From IMG/VR virus record IMGVR_UViG_3300017527_000087, positions 1 through 5,443 of that record: a DNA stretch of 5,443 nt. The stretch is one strand, 5' to 3'. The position numbers were made by a program, and so were the translations under genes. Below the pieces are notes generated by a model. It searched no databases. It saw only the letters and a program-made list of their open reading frames with translations, and had not been told where the DNA came from. The stretch comes from a virus. Shown piece after piece: positions 1 to 5,443 of the stretch (positions are counted from its first letter, which is position 1; every line of letters starts with the position of its first letter).

Positions 1-83
1 AATTTTCCATTATATAGTCTTATTGGACATTGGAATACGTCTAGTTGTAATTTATAACTTCCGAATAGTGGTCCTACTGTTGG
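1..83. repeat. Terminal direct repeat, copy 1. It is an assembly overlap of a circular genome with a 5360-nt unit.
   Basis: Bases 1..83 (aattttccattatatagtc...gtcctactgttgg) are identical, base for base, to 5361..5443. The repeat lies inside an open reading frame that reads through the junction. Confidence 0.95.
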
Positions 84-287
84 TAGTGTTTTTACGTCTG
101 CATCTAGTTTTATTGTCCATTTGTCTGCAGGCAATGCCACTTCTGACATAAATGGTACTAATGTCCCTGCCGCCATGCTACTTCTCCATGTACTACTAAG
201 GTCATGACTACTTCTGTTGTAATTTTTTAGGCTTACTTCTTGCTTGTGTCCGCTTCCTAGTCTGTCTCCTCCTATTGTTGTCTTCAT
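1..287 (-). CDS. VP1: Major capsid protein, N-terminal segment (joins 5360 across the circular junction).
   Basis: My hand translation of the minus strand gives MKTTIGGDRLGSGHKQEVSLKNYNRSSHDLSSTWRSSMAAGTLVPFMSEVALPADKWTIKLDADVKTLPTVGPLFGSYKLQLDVF.... ATG 285..287 is the first ATG after the in-frame stop at 309..311. It lies 1 nt after the TAA of the upstream ORF. The HDLS ... G-LVP ... LPxD pattern parallels the phiX174 F N-terminus (PHDLSH ... PVIAGD). Confidence 0.9.
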   Translation of the reverse strand, partial: MKTTIGGDRLGSGHKQEVSLKNYNRSSHDLSSTWRSSMAAGTLVPFMSEVALPADKWTIKLDADVKTLPTVGPLFGSYKLQLDVFQCPIRLYNGK

Positions 288-288
288 C

Positions 289-576
289 TTATTTCTGTTT
301 GTTTGTTTCTATTAATATCATCATTACCTGAACTATTCTATTCCATGTAATTTTTTTTACTTCCGCTTTTACTCGCTTTAGGCTTGTATCTGATTCTGTT
401 ACTCTATATTTTCCCATCACTCCGAAGTGATTCCCTTCTCCATCGCTTATTACTGTAAAGGGTGTTCCTTTTATTTCGTGCCTTTCAAATCCTGATTCTG
501 TATTGTTCGTGTCTTTTGTAGATTCCGATGTATTCTTTAATGACATAATTTTTGTCTTTTGTGTATTTGATTTCAT
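289..576 (-). CDS. Hypothetical 95-aa protein immediately upstream of VP1.
   Basis: Intact ORF with strongly A-ending codons throughout. It has a protein-like core (FERHEIKGTPFTVISDGEGNHFGVMGKYRVTESDTSLKRVKAEVKKITWNRIVQVMMIL). Its TAA lies 1 nt before the VP1 ATG. An alternative start is the internal ATG giving MSLKNT.... Confidence 0.7.
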   Translation of the reverse strand: MKSNTQKTKIMSLKNTSESTKDTNNTESGFERHEIKGTPFTVISDGEGNHFGVMGKYRVTESDTSLKRVKAEVKKITWNRIVQVMMILIETNKQK

Positions 577-691
577 AATTTACCTTTCTATAGTTTTGTA
601 GATTTTTCTTGTGTATTATTTCTCCAGTTTCTTCGTCTACATACGTTGATACTGTCTTGAACTTCTTTGGATCTTCTCTTACTCGATTCAT
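485..691 (-). CDS. Hypothetical 68-aa ORF. It overlaps both neighbours out of frame.
   Basis: It starts at an ATG. The first ~40 codons (MNRVREDPKKFKTVSTYVDEETGEIIHKKNLQNYRKV) have ordinary protein-like composition and A-ending codons like the large genes. The last ~30 codons overlap ORF 289..576 and look less coding-like. Confidence 0.4.
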   Translation of the reverse strand: MNRVREDPKKFKTVSTYVDEETGEIIHKKNLQNYRKVNYEIKYTKDKNYVIKEYIGIYKRHEQYRIRI

Positions 692-797
692 ATTTATATT
701 TGATTTTTCGTGTTTTCTCTATTTCTACTAATCCTTTGCATGCTACTAGTCCTATGATCATACTTACCCATAACCCTATTTCGTATTTATTCATCAC
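588..797 (-). CDS. Small putative lipoprotein or membrane peptide. It has a signal peptide with a lipobox and a very basic tail. The likely start is ATG 792..794 (the track uses GTG 795..797).
   Basis: MNKYEIGLWVSMIIGLVAC-KGLVEIEK... has a short n-region, a 12-residue hydrophobic core, and L-V-A-C matching the [LVI][ASTVI][GAS]C lipobox, with Cys at residue 19 (codon 738..740). The tail is Arg/Lys-rich. The last ~100 nt overlap ORF 485..691 in another frame. Confidence 0.5.
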   Translation of the reverse strand: MMNKYEIGLWVSMIIGLVACKGLVEIEKTRKIKYKYESSKRRSKEVQDSINVCRRRNWRNNTQEKSTKL

Positions 798-1020
798 ATA
801 GTGTTTTTAGTATTAGTTTTTTTAGTAGTTCTTCTGTGATTGTTCCATCTACTTTCTCTCCGTTTTGGTACTTACTTATTGTTAGATACCTTGTGTTCCC
901 GTTTTTACCTAGTATTTTTAACTTCATTTTCAATGTTTTATATTTTATGCGTACCGCAATATACTCTTTTTTTTTAATATGAAAATTGGTTGAATGTATT
1001 GTTCGCCTTTTTTGCCCCAA
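787..1020 (-). CDS. Small hypothetical ORF. It is 77 codons if TTG-initiated at 1020, or 46 aa from ATG 925..927. Extent and coding status are uncertain.
   Basis: The frame is open directly from a stop at 1021..1023. The only ATG is at 925..927 (MKLKILGKNGNTRYLTISKYQNGEKVDGTITEELLKKLILKTLCDE). Its TAA (787..789) overlaps the ATG of the next ORF by 8 nt, a coupling-type overlap. An A9 run sits at 967..975. Confidence 0.4.
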   Translation of the reverse strand: MGQKRRTIHSTNFHIKKKEYIAVRIKYKTLKMKLKILGKNGNTRYLTISKYQNGEKVDGTITEELLKKLILKTLCDE

Positions 1021-1044
1021 TTAAGGCACTTGTGCCGCATTATG

Positions 1045-1070
1045 CAGCCACCACCACCTACTGGTGGCTG
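1045..1070. other. 9-bp hairpin in the GC-rich spacer just after the Rep stop.
   Basis: cagccacca (1045..1053) and tggtggctg (1062..1070) are exact reverse complements around an 8-nt loop. A second short palindrome, ggcac-tt-gtgcc, lies at 1025..1036. Confidence 0.8.
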
Positions 1071-1073
1071 ACC

Positions 1074-2028
1074 TCATTTCCCATACTTTTTTTGTAGTCT
1101 TTCTAATTTCTTTAGATTTCTTCTTTGATTCTCGTAATTTCTTACTGTCCAATTGATTTTATCGTCTAGATAGCCTAGTCTCTTATTCTTGCGTTGTTCT
1201 TCTTCTAATACTGCATAGTAATCTTTTTCGCTTTCTGATATATCAATTTTTCTTCCGTTTACATATCTTACTTCCTCATCTAATTTTTCTATCCATAGTT
1301 TCTCCCTTTGTTCTTCTGTATATATCTTATTTCTGTAATATATTGGTAATGGTATCTCTTGCCCCGTTCTCAGTTTATAAGTCTCTTTAGTCTTTTTTTT
1401 TTATACATATTTCTCCTTACGTCTGGTCTATCCATATATGCCGCTCCTATTCCCCTACTTACGAACATTTTACTATTATAATTTGGGTGTTTTTGGTCTG
1501 TTTTACTTAGGTATTTCACTATATAATTTATTGTTCTTCCGTTTACATAGTCCCCTATATATACTCCTCCATATTTCCATATCGGTTCTATATCTTCCGG
1601 ATTATCTGTCCATACTATCCCGTGCATATGTATTCTTTCTGTTCTTGTTCCTCCTATTTCTGTTACTATCCAGTGTCTTATTGTTTTCTTGTATTTCTTT
1701 CTCCATCGTTCTGTGAACCTCCTTACTGCTACTTTGCACACCTCATTATCTCTGTCATATCCTCTCAATGGTTCTGCTAGTTCTTCCAATTTTTTTAGTT
1801 CTTCGTCTTTAAACGTTAGTGTTACGAAATACGCATTTTTATTTACCCTTATATCTTCATGTAGTCTTACTTGCCATTCTCTAGCTTTCTTCTTCTTACA
1901 TTCCATACATTTTCCACACCCTATCGGTACTTCTAAGACCCTTTTATCATTAATAGGGGGTATGACCCCCCTATTTTTTTATTGCTCTTATATCGAGGAT
2001 TCTTTATTAATTTTGGATATAAACACAT
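1074..2028 (-). CDS. VP4: Replication initiator (Microviridae VP4 / phiX174 gpA-like HUH endonuclease). The full gene requires two -1 frame changes, at A7 (1974..1980) and A10 (1393..1402), to give a predicted 318-aa product.
   Basis: Segment 1 starts at ATG 2026..2028 and reads MCLYPKLIKNPRYKSNKK. Segment 2 (-1 frame) reads NRGVIPPINDKRVLEVPIGCGKCMECKKKKAREWQVRL and carries FVTLTF (motif 1), IHMHGIVW (HUH) and YIVKYLSK (the YxxKYxxK two-tyrosine motif, as in phiX174 gpA YVAKYVNK). Segment 3 (a further -1 frame, with no ATG) reads KTKETYKLRTGQEIPLPIYYRNKIYTEEQREKLWIEKLDEEVRYVNGRKIDIS...LQKKYGK. Stop is TGA 1074..1076. Confidence 0.8.
1370..1906 (-). CDS. VP4: Rep central segment as an uninterrupted ORF (HUH nuclease core). 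This is the part listed in the ORF track.
   Basis: 178-aa track ORF containing all three HUH-superfamily motifs. Its first Met sits inside the conserved Cys cluster (CGKC-M-EC). The same frame is open upstream to 1978 without an ATG, so 1906 is not the true start. Confidence 0.85.
   Translation of the reverse strand: MECKKKKAREWQVRLHEDIRVNKNAYFVTLTFKDEELKKLEELAEPLRGYDRDNEVCKVAVRRFTERWRKKYKKTIRHWIVTEIGGTRTERIHMHGIVWTDNPEDIEPIWKYGGVYIGDYVNGRTINYIVKYLSKTDQKHPNYNSKMFVSRGIGAAYMDRPDVRRNMYKKKRLKRLIN
1393..1402 (-). promoter_or_regulatory. Poly-A run (A10 on the coding strand) at the second Rep frame change. Candidate -1 or transcriptional slippage site, or homopolymer miscall.
   Basis: Frame 0 reads tat aaa aaa aaa aga cta aag aga ctt ata aac tga, stopping 7 codons later. 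The -1 frame reads aag act aaa gag act tat aaa ctg and opens the 106-codon conserved-looking Rep C-terminus. Confidence 0.6.
1952..1975. other. Perfect 9-bp G5/C5-core hairpin inside the Rep 5' region, immediately 3' of the A7 run on the mRNA.
   Basis: On the plus strand, aataggggg (1952..1960), a tatgac loop, then ccccctatt (1967..1975). On the coding strand this reads AAUAGGGGG-gucaua-CCCCCUAUU. Confidence 0.85.
1974..1980 (-). promoter_or_regulatory. Poly-A run (A7 on the coding strand) at the first Rep frame change. Candidate -1 slippage site or homopolymer miscall.
   Basis: Frame 0 reads aat aaa aaa ata ggg and stops after 31 codons. The -1 frame reads aaa aat agg ggg gtc and continues into the Cys motif. 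The run's 3' end overlaps the base of the hairpin at 1952..1975. Confidence 0.6.
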
Positions 2029-2029
2029 A

Positions 2030-3124
2030 TTACTTCTTTCCTACATCAATTCCCTTTACTATTACGTCCATTGTTGATATAAAGTTTTTATATGTATCGA
2101 TGCTTATTTTTCCATCTTCGTACTCTTTTAACGCTCTGTTTCTTGCTTGTGTTTCCGTTAACATTTTAATGTTAGTATCTGCGTTAGTTGCTCCGGATAG
2201 GCTATTTCTTCTATTTGCGAATGCATTTGTATATCCTTGACTTATATCTGCCCATAGTTTTGCTATTTCTGCCGCTTGTTTTTTACCTCCATATTCTTTG
2301 ATTAGTTTGTCTTGTGATTGTGCCAAATTTGCTTGCATACCTTTATTTAGTGCGTCTGCTTTTGTTAGTGCTATTATATGCTCCTTGTTTTCTGCTGTTA
2401 GGTCTGCTGTTTCTTTCGTTAATCTCGTTTGTTGTATTAAGTTTTTTGCCTTTTCTTTTAGTTCGTTTATCATTGCGTCATAGTGTAACCCTTGTTTATT
2501 TGTTAGCATATCTTGGTAGTCTTCTTTAGCTTGTATTAACATACTATTGTTAGCTGTTTCATTAATTTGCATTTCTGTTAAACTTGTCGCCTTGTTTATG
2601 TTTGCTATCCTTGCTCTTCCCTCGTCTGAGTCTACTCCTCCTATTTTAGTTGCTTCTACTGTTGTTTTTTCTGTTTGTGCATTTAGATTTGCTATTTGTG
2701 CTTGCATCATTCCTGCTTGTAACGCACTCCCTATATCCATTGGTGCGTGACTTGTTCCCGACGCTGCACTTCCTCCGCCTTGACTTCCTGCAGTTGTTCC
2801 GCCTCCTCCTGACATTCCATACATTAACGCTGGATTCAATCCCGCTTCTTCCATATGTTTTTTCTGTGCTCCATAGTTTGTTTTGTTCCACATGTCCATC
2901 TGTAATTCATGCCCTTGCATATTTAGATTCCTTTGGTTTTGGTGTTGTATTCCCATTAGTTCTTTACTTCTGTTGTGTGCTTTTTTTGCTCTGGCATTTT
3001 GCCCTAGCATACCTATTGCTCCTCCTGCTATATTTGCTACTGTTCCCCACATATTATTTGTATTTTGATTGTTATTATTTGCTGCATTTTGTGCTGCATT
3101 TGCTACTGTGTTTCCTATTCCCAT
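2030..3124 (-). CDS. VP2: Minor capsid / DNA pilot protein (Microviridae VP2, functional analogue of phiX174 H).
   Basis: 364-aa ORF. It has an Asn/Gln-rich N-terminus, the hallmark segment HMEEAGLNPALMYGMSGGGG, then a Gly/Ser/Ala-rich tract and a long charged helical C-terminal half. Its position between the capsid module and Rep fits the family. The stop, TAA 2030..2032, lies 1 nt before the Rep ATG. Confidence 0.85.
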   Translation of the reverse strand: MGIGNTVANAAQNAANNNNQNTNNMWGTVANIAGGAIGMLGQNARAKKAHNRSKELMGIQHQNQRNLNMQGHELQMDMWNKTNYGAQKKHMEEAGLNPALMYGMSGGGGTTAGSQGGGSAASGTSHAPMDIGSALQAGMMQAQIANLNAQTEKTTVEATKIGGVDSDEGRARIANINKATSLTEMQINETANNSMLIQAKEDYQDMLTNKQGLHYDAMINELKEKAKNLIQQTRLTKETADLTAENKEHIIALTKADALNKGMQANLAQSQDKLIKEYGGKKQAAEIAKLWADISQGYTNAFANRRNSLSGATNADTNIKMLTETQARNRALKEYEDGKISIDTYKNFISTMDVIVKGIDVGKK

Positions 3125-3194
3125 TTTTCGTTCTTTTCTTAAAAGAAATTATTTTTTCTCTTGATAATTAAGTATACATGCGTACCAGTGATTA

Positions 3195-3220
3195 AAAAGG
3201 AGGTTTTTACACCCCCTTTT
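3195..3220 (-). terminator. Intrinsic-terminator-like hairpin downstream of the VP1 and 131-aa genes.
   Basis: Minus-strand RNA reads AAAAGGGGG-uguaaaaa-CCUCCUUUU followed by U then AAU. This is a 9-bp stem with one G.U pair, a G/C core and a U5 tail. It starts 27 nt after the 131-aa ORF stop and lies 70 nt before the VP2 ATG. Confidence 0.5.
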
Positions 3221-3246
3221 ACTGCTACTAATTCCATCACTCGCTT

Positions 3247-3642
3247 TTATACGACTGACGTTTCGTCTCCTCCTTTCTTCTTTAAATCTATTACTTTAGT
3301 TTCATCTTTTTTCTCTTCCTTTTGTGCTCCTGTATCTTTCGCTTTTGCTATTTTACTTTTATGCACTTTATCCATTGCTTCCGCCGCAATTTCCCATCTA
3401 TCCGTTTTGATATTATACGCCGCTAATACTCCATCTTTTCGCTCTGTAAATATCTCTGGAGCTCCATCTGTTATTGGCTCGCCATTTTCTACTACTCTTT
3501 GTATTTTCGTTTCTATGGTTTCTCCCTCTACTACTTCCGCTGAATATATATGATATTCCCGTTCTTCTCTTGGTTGTTTTTCTGTTTCTGCGTCGAATTC
3601 CTTAATTCTTGTTTCCGCAAATCTGTTTACTTTGTAACTCAT
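3247..3642 (-). CDS. Hypothetical 131-aa acidic protein between VP1 and VP2. It is a possible internal scaffolding (VP3-like) protein, judged by position only.
   Basis: Intact ORF whose ATG lies 4 nt after the VP1 stop. Third codon positions are A-rich, as in VP1. The protein is Glu/Lys-rich and contains the segment GVLAAYNIKTDRWEIAAEAMDKV. No domain is recognisable with certainty. Confidence 0.8.
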   Translation of the reverse strand: MSYKVNRFAETRIKEFDAETEKQPREEREYHIYSAEVVEGETIETKIQRVVENGEPITDGAPEIFTERKDGVLAAYNIKTDRWEIAAEAMDKVHKSKIAKAKDTGAQKEEKKDETKVIDLKKKGGDETSVV

Positions 3643-3646
3643 CTTT

Positions 3647-5443
3647 CTATAAATTAGGTATTATTTTTGCACTCATTTTTCTCCTTGCCGTTATATTTTT
3701 ACTTATCTGTACCCAAAAGTTTTGGCTACTCAACTCTGTTTCTGCGAATATATAATTAAACTTACTTGGATCTACATATGTTGTTAAGTCTGCTATACCT
3801 TGATTATCTTCTTTGTGATTATATCTTCTATTCAATGTCATAAACATTTCCTTGTCTTTCTCTGCAAAGTTTCCATAAGTCTTATTTAATGCACTCATGT
3901 AATTTATCCACGCTGGTTGCTTTCCCGCACTTTTTTTGCTTGATACGTAATTTGCTGTCATATCTGTATCGAACCATGCCATGTTATGTTCTGTGATCAA
4001 GTCTTGGTACCCTATTCCATCTAATGCCGGTTTGTGTAAATCGTCTAGTGTTTCTAAGTCCAGGTGCCATGAATTTGTTTGACTATAGTCTAATCTTGGT
4101 GTTAAACTTACTATCCCAATTATATAACTTGGTTCATCTACTTTCACTTCTACATATCCTCCTTTGTGTTTGTTTGTTAATCTTCCTCTTCCTGCTAGTG
4201 TTCCCATCGGTTGTTCTTCTCCTTGTACATTTGCATTTGTTGTACTTACCACTTCTTCAAACGCTACCTCCTTTATTAAACTCCCTTGATACACGGGATT
4301 TTCTTGTGCTTTTGCTCTTTCATGTGTATATACTGCATCTAGCCAATCATCATACGTTCCTCCACTTACTGCAATCCTATTAAGCATGTTATATACTTTG
4401 TTTGCTAGGTTTAAGCTATCTATTGTAAAGCTATCTCCCGTTGTGTCTACTGCTGTTATCTCATTAATTCCATTTGCTCCATCTATCCACTCTGTACTAA
4501 CCCAATTATTTGCTAAATCACTCTGGTATGTTTTTATCCCTAGTCCTTCTTGATTCTTTGTTATATAGTGTCCGTTTGCTCCTTCACTTAGACTTAAGCC
4601 GTATGGTGCTGTTTTTGTTCTGTCTATTTTAAACGATGCGTTGTTTTTTACATCTGCTAGAATATCCATTCTCATATCATCTATATTCTCTAATGGGAAG
4701 CTGAATAACGTTGGCTCTCCGTCTGATGGGTCTACTGTGTTTGCTATACTTGTTACTTGTACATTTATATCAATTGTTCCTGTATAGTTTGTTACGGGGT
4801 TTCTTGCTTCTAGAGACCATGTACCCGTACTTACTTCTGTGAGTTCTATTGTTCTCCATACTGTTGCTACTGAACCGAATTCGCTGTTTATGAAACATAC
4901 CATTTGACTTACATCAGGTTTTCCGAATGGGAATTGTTCGTTGTTTGCTGCCCATTCTAAGGTTGCGCTCAACCTGTAATCATTTCCTCCTATATTTACT
5001 GTTATCGTGTTTCCTAGTAGTGGGTATTCTTGTTGTCCTACTACGTTAAGTACTACATTTGTTGCATTAAATAGGTTATTGTTGTTGTCGTTGTGTATAA
5101 CTACTCCGATCTCTTCTTGTTTATTACTGTAGTATTGTTTGTATATATCCCAATACGCTAGATATGGTACTGCATTAAAGTATCTTCTTCTTGGGCTTGG
5201 GCTTTTTCCTAGTCCGCTTATCCCTAGATATTTGTGTATACTACTTGGATTTACTTGTTGGTTATCCCCTTTTGTACTGTCGTATGCTCCTGACCTTACT
5301 TCCATCTGTGGTAATTTCACCTCGCTCATATTCATACCTATATTTAGCATATTCATATGTAATTTTCCATTATATAGTCTTATTGGACATTGGAATACGT
5401 CTAGTTGTAATTTATAACTTCCGAATAGTGGTCCTACTGTTGG
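3647..5443 (-). CDS. VP1: Major capsid protein (Microviridae VP1 / F-protein family), body and C-terminus. The frame is open to the window edge and continues in 1..287 through the circular junction. Non-redundant extent is 3647..5360.
   Basis: The track ORF 3647..5356 is only the ATG-limited part. Upstream of that ATG the same frame stays open to 5443 and reads ...PTVGPLFGSYKLQLDVFQCPIRLYNGKLH-MNMLNIG.... Its large size and its position ahead of the scaffold-like and pilot genes fit the family. Stop is TAG 3647..3649. The joined gene is 287+1714 = 2001 nt, giving 666 aa. Confidence 0.93.
   Translation of the reverse strand, partial: PTVGPLFGSYKLQLDVFQCPIRLYNGKLHMNMLNIGMNMSEVKLPQMEVRSGAYDSTKGDNQQVNPSSIHKYLGISGLGKSPSPRRRYFNAVPYLAYWDIYKQYYSNKQEEIGVVIHNDNNNNLFNATNVVLNVVGQQEYPLLGNTITVNIGGNDYRLSATLEWAANNEQFPFGKPDVSQMVCFINSEFGSVATVWRTIELTEVSTGTWSLEARNPVTNYTGTIDINVQVTSIANTVDPSDGEPTLFSFPLENIDDMRMDILADVKNNASFKIDRTKTAPYGLSLSEGANGHYITKNQEGLGIKTYQSDLANNWVSTEWIDGANGINEITAVDTTGDSFTIDSLNLANKVYNMLNRIAVSGGTYDDWLDAVYTHERAKAQENPVYQGSLIKEVAFEEVVSTTNANVQGEEQPMGTLAGRGRLTNKHKGGYVEVKVDEPSYIIGIVSLTPRLDYSQTNSWHLDLETLDDLHKPALDGIGYQDLITEHNMAWFDTDMTANYVSSKKSAGKQPAWINYMSALNKTYGNFAEKDKEMFMTLNRRYNHKEDNQGIADLTTYVDPSKFNYIFAETELSSQNFWVQISKNITARRKMSAKIIPNL
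5361..5443. repeat. Terminal direct repeat, copy 2 (redundant with 1..83).
   Basis: Identical to 1..83 by direct comparison. Confidence 0.95.

Follow-up and report, generated by a model that had tools for sequence, protein, structure and literature searches.

The Rep (VP4) gene of an uncultivated gokushovirus-like microvirus is interrupted by a frame break at a run of ten A residues (A10), which is present in two assemblies. The genome was analysed as a stretch of 5443 nucleotides (nt), positions 1 to 5443 of IMG/VR record IMGVR_UViG_3300017527_000087 (hereafter the window), in which every gene lies on the minus strand. Most probably A10 reflects the actual genome sequence of the viral population, and it may be a genuine, leaky frameshift in which poly-A slippage, a known phenomenon, rescues the gene in a new setting. 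According to the explanation that we favour with moderate confidence, the tract is real and one base short, its unshifted decoding gives a truncated protein with the HUH core, and slipped transcripts supply the full-length Rep. A second break in the same gene, at a run of seven A residues (A7), is confined to the window and, judged by the sequence of its relatives, is not a recoding signal. A single leaky frameshift at A10 is plausible, and nothing shows an evolved three-frame recoding system.

The broken gene is an ordinary microvirus Rep of one open reading frame (ORF), an HUH endonuclease. Along the minus strand its codon phases pass from 0 to 1 to 2 (mod 3), both switches being −1 and equivalent to one added A. 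Every coordinate given for this arrangement, with its switches at A7 (site 1) and A10 (site 2), in a first-pass annotation of the window was reproduced (Table 1), and so were the number and positions of the nine T runs of at least seven bases that it had listed on the plus strand. The same annotation had predicted a joined product of 318 amino acids (aa) with one extra A mending each break, and indeed residues 1-318 align from end to end, as a single tblastn segment, with uninterrupted Reps. The joined protein matches 296 GenBank phage records that bear the annotation VP4 or replication initiator as well as IMG/VR contigs, and in the protein databases about 3000 proteins, the best at 72% identity. 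Pfam family PF23343 (REP_ORF2-G2P) covers residues 67-177 (E 3e-13, 50 bits with a cut-off of 27.8), the HMHG (H134, H136) and YIVKY (Y169, Y173) motifs fall in invariant columns of a 38-sequence alignment, and a PDB fold search with the predicted Rep structure gave weak matches to HUH nuclease domains, with an HUH-like core. The frame of segment 2 carries NRGVIPPINDKRVLEVPIGCGKCMECKKKK together with these motifs. We also considered whether the C-terminal part is a gene with a start of its own and rejected this possibility, because no ATG, GTG or TTG opens the frame of segment 3.

The evidence that A10 is genuine comes from a second assembly. An exact look-up of the 178-aa Rep fragment that a gene caller sees in the window returned a cluster with one other member, the 219-aa protein P0122, and with it a sister contig, L016, of 1988 nt from JGI sample 3300017613 that is 99.8% identical to the window. 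L016 shares both A10 and the premature stop, P0122 ending in NMYKKKRLKRLIN (YKKKRLKRLIN) exactly as the corresponding frame of the window does. In their central parts the two sequences differ by one single-nucleotide polymorphism and one indel, the remaining differences being grouped near the contig ends. The sample also contains a contig over VP1, L017 (2834 nt), which matches the window at 99.6% identity with 0 indels. L016 or L017 extends over 14 other runs of at least six bases, an A9 and an A8 among them, and all have the same length as in the window. When IMG/VR loci were ranked by C-terminal similarity alone, a ranking that is not biased toward intact genes, a frame break was found in none of the 68 full Rep loci. 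Since the call at site 2 is reproduced, the shared runs agree and broken Reps are rare, a random assembly error at this position is unlikely. Homopolymer under-calling had been the null hypothesis of the first-pass annotation; the same A10 and stop in a second assembly speak in part against random error, but the two assemblies represent the same viral population and no relative beyond this species shares the break.

No run in the genome is longer than A10, which has two properties of a transcriptional-slippage site: it exceeds the length of about 9 nt, and one added A restores the full-length conserved ORF. A slippery heptamer of the type X_XXY_YYZ is also present in the zero frame as A_AAA_AAA. 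The restored sequence YKKKKTKETY fits the family in both length and composition, relatives having YKKGETKETY or YKKKETIETY, and the residues found there (YKKGET, YKKKET, YNENGET) form a lysine-rich loop. In bacteria, RNA polymerase is known to slip with high efficiency once a run of A or T reaches 9 (PMC5009743, PMC1088944). We infer slippage as the source of full-length Rep in the following way. Decoded without a shift, the gene would yield a truncated protein, 219 aa long in the sister contig, that retains the whole HUH catalytic core. During the synthesis of some mRNAs the host RNA polymerase would slip on the tract, adding one A or dropping two. Such slipped mRNAs should restore the frame and give the 318-aa Rep, and ribosomes slipping by −1 on A_AAA_AAA may contribute. 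The full-length protein appears to be needed: the C-terminal 106 residues hold 22 invariant positions and fold confidently in the structural model (predicted local distance difference test scores of 81-84 over residues 211-240); segment 3 keeps 22 of the 22 family-invariant residues of that region and has no internal stop. No intact Rep of this species was found among 5.8 billion protein clusters, nor is an A11 version called among 15 billion proteins.

The situation is different at site 1. A run of eight A residues (A8) at this position is the only indel that distinguishes L016 from the window over 1988 nt, and the N-terminus of L016 is uninterrupted: P0122 begins with MCLYPKLIKNPRYKSNKKNRGVIPP (MCLYPK...KKNRGVIPP), which is precisely the joint that the first-pass annotation had predicted. 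At the homologous position 36 of 117 distinct relatives have an in-frame AAT AAA AAA AAY (A8) and 55 have AAA AAG AAC; the in-frame A8 is also found in relative L002 and in L065, the closest intact relative (72%). Because A8 occurs in L016 and in these relatives, we take it to be the ancestral in-frame state, from which the A7 of the window derives by loss of one base. Either the homopolymer was miscalled in this assembly, or the private break marks a minority or defective variant.

Several observations weigh against a real, functional A10. The clearest is the lack of conservation: at site 2 all of 125 distinct relatives are in frame with a maximum run of A8, and neither the tract nor the out-of-frame architecture occurs in them; it is limited to the window and the near-identical L016. 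No RNA structure was detected downstream of A10 (fold of −3 kcal/mol, z 0.2). The Shine–Dalgarno-like AAGGAG upstream of the run is common on the purine-rich coding strand (9 seen, 5 expected), which makes it weak evidence, and an AGGAGG is found at the same place in L002, where the gene is in frame; as a dnaX-like stimulator the hexamer is not distinguishable from chance, and we set it aside as at most a possible one. Furthermore, there are only two assemblies of nearly the same strain, which could share project, library method or reads. As their reads may not be independent, a systematic under-call of A11 to A10 stays a serious rival, and the discrepancy at site 1 lowers the trust that can be placed in the run lengths of the window. 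The two assemblies have diverged too little for a test of whether the C-terminal segment is still under selection. Finally, residues 211-250 of the model are confidently folded with no loose linker, and neither structure prediction nor the PDB fold search revealed a clean domain boundary at site 2, so that the truncated product, as far as the model goes, may lack a tidy functional module. The absence of the break outside the species argues for a leakiness that is recent and tolerated rather than selected; we consider it quite unlikely that A10 is a selected slippage switch which fixes the ratio of nuclease-only truncated Rep to full-length Rep, much as happens for the tau and gamma products of dnaX or the two forms of tssM1.

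An artefact at both sites is possible, though in our view somewhat improbable. The true sequence would then have A8 and A11 and an uninterrupted Rep of 318 codons, with a random under-call at site 1 and a systematic one at site 2. Exactly one A mends each break and gives a family-typical protein, the length of site 1 differs between two near-identical assemblies that are perhaps not independent, and A10, being the longest run of the genome, is the most error-prone. That such errors occur is illustrated by L065 (ENA ERZ26869290 ctg352156, 1..14358), a head-to-tail concatemer of about 2.7 copies of a genome of ~5361 nt, in which the gene calls vary by copy: VP1 has 522 or 676 aa and Rep either 325 aa or a split into 60 + 102 aa. 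These differences from copy to copy are plainly errors. The field likewise treats frameshifts in metagenome-assembled genomes (MAGs) of microviruses as assembly artefacts. In the MAGs of Kirchberger et al. 2022 (PMC9239249), genes are split into several ORFs by single-base frameshifts much as here, but there artefacts were assumed and patched with Ns without testing, whereas the site 2 break of Rep is reproduced in a second assembly. Against an artefact stand the identical call of A10 in both assemblies with agreement at the other 14 shared runs, the missing A11 or intact Rep among 15 billion proteins, and the low background error rate indicated by the 68 unbroken IMG/VR loci. In addition, the exact 83-nt overlap of the window's ends suggests a short-read de Bruijn assembly, and data of this type seldom mis-call A7 or A8.

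Alternatively, the genome may be defective or decaying, A10 being a real null mutation that was followed by A7 in the strain of the window, with brief persistence or replication in trans by co-infecting intact strains. We regard this as unlikely. A pair of inactivating indels in a single gene would fit selection that was relaxed once the first had occurred. Because L016 and L017 disagree in their overlap (window 527..707), sample 3300017613 holds at least two strains of the virus. Frame breaks were found in two relatives, one of which (L061) is broken away from any homopolymer. The other, L033 (ENA OGVU01001783.1, 2305..2315), has a 63%-identical Rep with an A7 break homologous to site 2 that is mended by one A; its Rep ends early (…TEEEREYMFALS before the stop), is followed by an unrelated HAD-like gene and is a singleton in the database. 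L033 looks decayed or chimeric. It can be cited as a precedent for decay, and we rejected it as independent support for site 2 because it is a singleton and its Rep is cut short beside a foreign gene. On the other hand VP1, VP2 and the other ORFs of the window are intact, the genome is a closed circle abundant enough for full assembly, and the C-terminal frame has stayed free of stops with all of its 22 invariant residues. The phiX174 A protein acts mainly in cis, which counts against replication in trans, and the search of 5.8 billion protein clusters did not turn up an intact helper Rep of the same species.

The most elaborate proposal of the first-pass annotation, a programmed gene whose products would be a leader peptide, a C-terminally truncated nuclease and complete Rep, made through two −1 events, ribosomal or transcriptional, at A7 and at A10, was not borne out and is very improbable, also when the hairpin beside A7 is taken into account. 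In its favour, both shifts are −1 and at A runs, a strong hairpin adjoins A7, AAGGAG lies upstream of A10, and A_AAA_AAA is a proven −1 motif in a family of insertion sequences (IS) (PMC4066793). Yet the sister contig and every relative stay in frame at site 1; the annotation itself had named uninterrupted Rep ORFs in close relatives as refuting recoding, and by that standard L016, with its A8 and uninterrupted N-terminus, refutes it at site 1. The heptamer at site 1 is imperfect (U_AAA_AAA), A7 is below the 9-nt slippage length (PMC1088944), and the frame architecture is conserved beyond the species at neither site. The three options that had been left open, under-calling, decay and recoding, thus receive different answers at the two sites: recoding fails at site 1, a leaky shift is plausible at site 2, and under-calling is alive at both.

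The hairpin beside site 1 deserves consideration of its own. It corresponds to Rep codons 18-27, with the form AAYRGGGGG, a loop of 5-6 nt and CCCCCYRTT, and its predicted stability is high both as RNA (−16.2 kcal/mol, z −3.5) and as DNA (−8.4, z −3.3). It is found at homologous positions in L001, L003, L016, L018-L023, L025-L030, L033, L061, L062 and L065, and is kept across the 'MCLYP' clade, where most relatives have it, those with no slippery run included; the human-gut 'MCLYTKY' clade lacks it. Within the stem one pair covaries, being U-A in 7 sequences and C-G in 6, and codon usage within the G/C core is skewed: the Gly codons of the stem are GGG in 67-71% of sequences compared with ~16% elsewhere in Rep, and the Pro codon is CCC in 58% compared with ~10%. 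These sequence patterns point to a conserved nucleic-acid element in its own right. On the antisense (plus) strand a T run comes after the hairpin, which there scores as an intrinsic terminator. The element may serve as an antisense terminator, a priming site for the complementary strand or an origin. We rejected the hairpin as a frameshift stimulator, since relatives with AAAAAGAAC as the run, which require no shift, keep it just as well. Its stem begins within the A7 run, with the G-C core just 2 nt beyond the run, whereas classical frameshift stimulators sit ~5-9 nt downstream.

Known systems offer several points of comparison for site 2. The nearest are Citrobacter rodentium tssM1 and Yersinia pseudotuberculosis tssM3 (PMC4256274), in which an essential gene is interrupted just after 10-11 A residues, an A added in transcription restores the frame, and truncated and full-length products arise from one gene; in the interrupted tssM1, with an A11 tract, 20-25% of the product is full-length. 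For tssM1 both slippage and the need for the two products were shown experimentally, while the microvirus Rep is known from its sequence and has A10 instead of A11. Slippage genes with A9 or T9 (IS elements, Thermus thermophilus dnaX and 'authentic frameshift' genes; PMC1088944, PMC5009743) similarly have runs of at least about 9 nt and an ORF restored in the mRNA, but they are conserved across related elements or genomes, unlike the A10 break of Rep, which is limited to one species and two assemblies. Sites for programmed −1 ribosomal frameshifting of the E. coli dnaX and IS3/IS1 type combine A_AAA_AAG or A_AAA_AAA with an upstream Shine–Dalgarno-like element and a downstream stem-loop (PMC4066793). 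Site 2 resembles them in its zero-frame A_AAA_AAA and in AAGGAG 10 nt upstream; it differs in having no downstream structure and in that the hexamer is a common one, and at site 1 the heptamer is imperfect and the hairpin too near. The proposed joint occurrence of a full-length and a shorter Rep-derived protein also recalls A and A* of phiX174. A* arises by in-frame internal initiation and is without the N-terminus, whereas the short product of the Rep gene described here would lose its C-terminus through a frame break.

Table 1. Positions of the Rep segments, the two A runs and associated features in the window
Feature	Position	Strand	Remarks
Rep (VP4) coding region, complete	1074..2028	-	including final stop TGA 1074..1076; three-frame translation
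Rep segment 1, codons 1-18, MCLYPKLIKNPRYKSNKK	1975..2028	-	identical to the N-terminus of P0122 (L016)
31-codon ORF when frame 1 is unshifted, MCLYPK...IGGSYPLLMIKGS and stop	1933..2028	-	ATG 2026..2028, TAG 1933..1935; from ORF list
Site 1, A7 run (T7 on plus strand)	1974..1980	-	one A shorter than in sister contig L016
9-bp hairpin AAUAGGGGG-GUCAUA-CCCCCUAUU	1952..1975	-	overlaps last two A of the A7 run
Rep segment 2, codons 19-212	1394..1975	-	Cys cluster, motif 1 (FVTLTF), HUH (HMHG), Tyr motif (YIVKY); unshifted, stops at TGA 1370..1372
178-aa ORF as seen by gene caller	1370..1906	-	ATG at 1906, stop 1370..1372; exact protein is P0121 in JGI/IMG
Shine–Dalgarno-like AAGGAG	1413..1418	-	10 nt upstream of A10
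Site 2, A10 run (T10 on plus strand)	1393..1402	-	frame 2 contains A_AAA_AAA (1400..1394)
Rep segment 3, codons 213-318, KTKETYKLRTGQEIPLPIYYRNKIY...KKYGK	1077..1394	-	106 codons, without own start codon
Terminal direct repeat, 83 nt	1..83 = 5361..5443	.	exact; marks closed circle

The exact repeat at the two ends of the window implies a circular molecule of 5360 nt. VP1 is a single intact ORF of 666 codons that spans the circle junction, and an identical 666-aa protein is called on a sister contig; an N-terminal truncation of VP1 as a third break was rejected, its apparent shortness being an effect of the point at which the circle was opened. Both VP2 (364 aa) and a gene for 131 aa are likewise unbroken, leaving Rep as the sole broken gene of the window. 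Near the end of L017 there are five substitutions relative to the window at every third base (window 3331, 3334, 3337, 3340 and 3343), which leave the 131-aa protein unaltered; this synonymous cluster suggests that sample 3300017613 contains genuine strain variation or recombination. Apart from the two sister contigs, no nearer copy of the virus above 72% for Rep or 62% for VP1 was found in GenBank phages, IMG/VR, metagenome contigs, GTDB or the protein databases; a megablast of the window against GenBank phages gave 0 matches and a scan of GTDB genomes 0 relatives.

Two further elements lie downstream of Rep genes in this group. Right after the Rep stop of the window (~1045..1070, minus strand) CAGCCACCA...TGGTGGCTG forms a GC-rich hairpin, with another small GC stem after it, in a genome of otherwise 35% GC. 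With a DNA fold of −15.6 kcal/mol (z −3.2), the hairpin might act as a terminator or be a structure involved in replication. Several relatives at 62-66% identity have a conserved intergenic motif, ATATTTAAAAAAAAAAAGTATATTAG, with an A11 run downstream of Rep (L004 716..726, L018 4044..4054, L020 5214..5224, L021 1013..1023 and L022 1680..1690), the 5′ flank being slightly altered in L020. In this group most of the long A runs are intergenic.

The claim made here is narrow either way, concerning one species and two assemblies with no conservation beyond those. If the break at A10 is an artefact, even short-read circular contigs can carry homopolymer miscalls that resemble recoding, and a second assembly is the cheapest means to discriminate between the two. 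A literature search found no report of recoding in Microviridae, and should A10 prove to be a selected switch, it would be the first recoding event described in this family, and the frameshifts routinely patched from microvirus MAGs would include real biology. If A10 is simply real, this already argues against the blind repair of frameshifts in viral MAGs. An uncultivated single-stranded DNA phage would then make its essential replication initiator only by way of polymerase or ribosome slippage, which would add the smallest DNA phages to the IS elements, endosymbionts and secretion genes in which the phenomenon is known.

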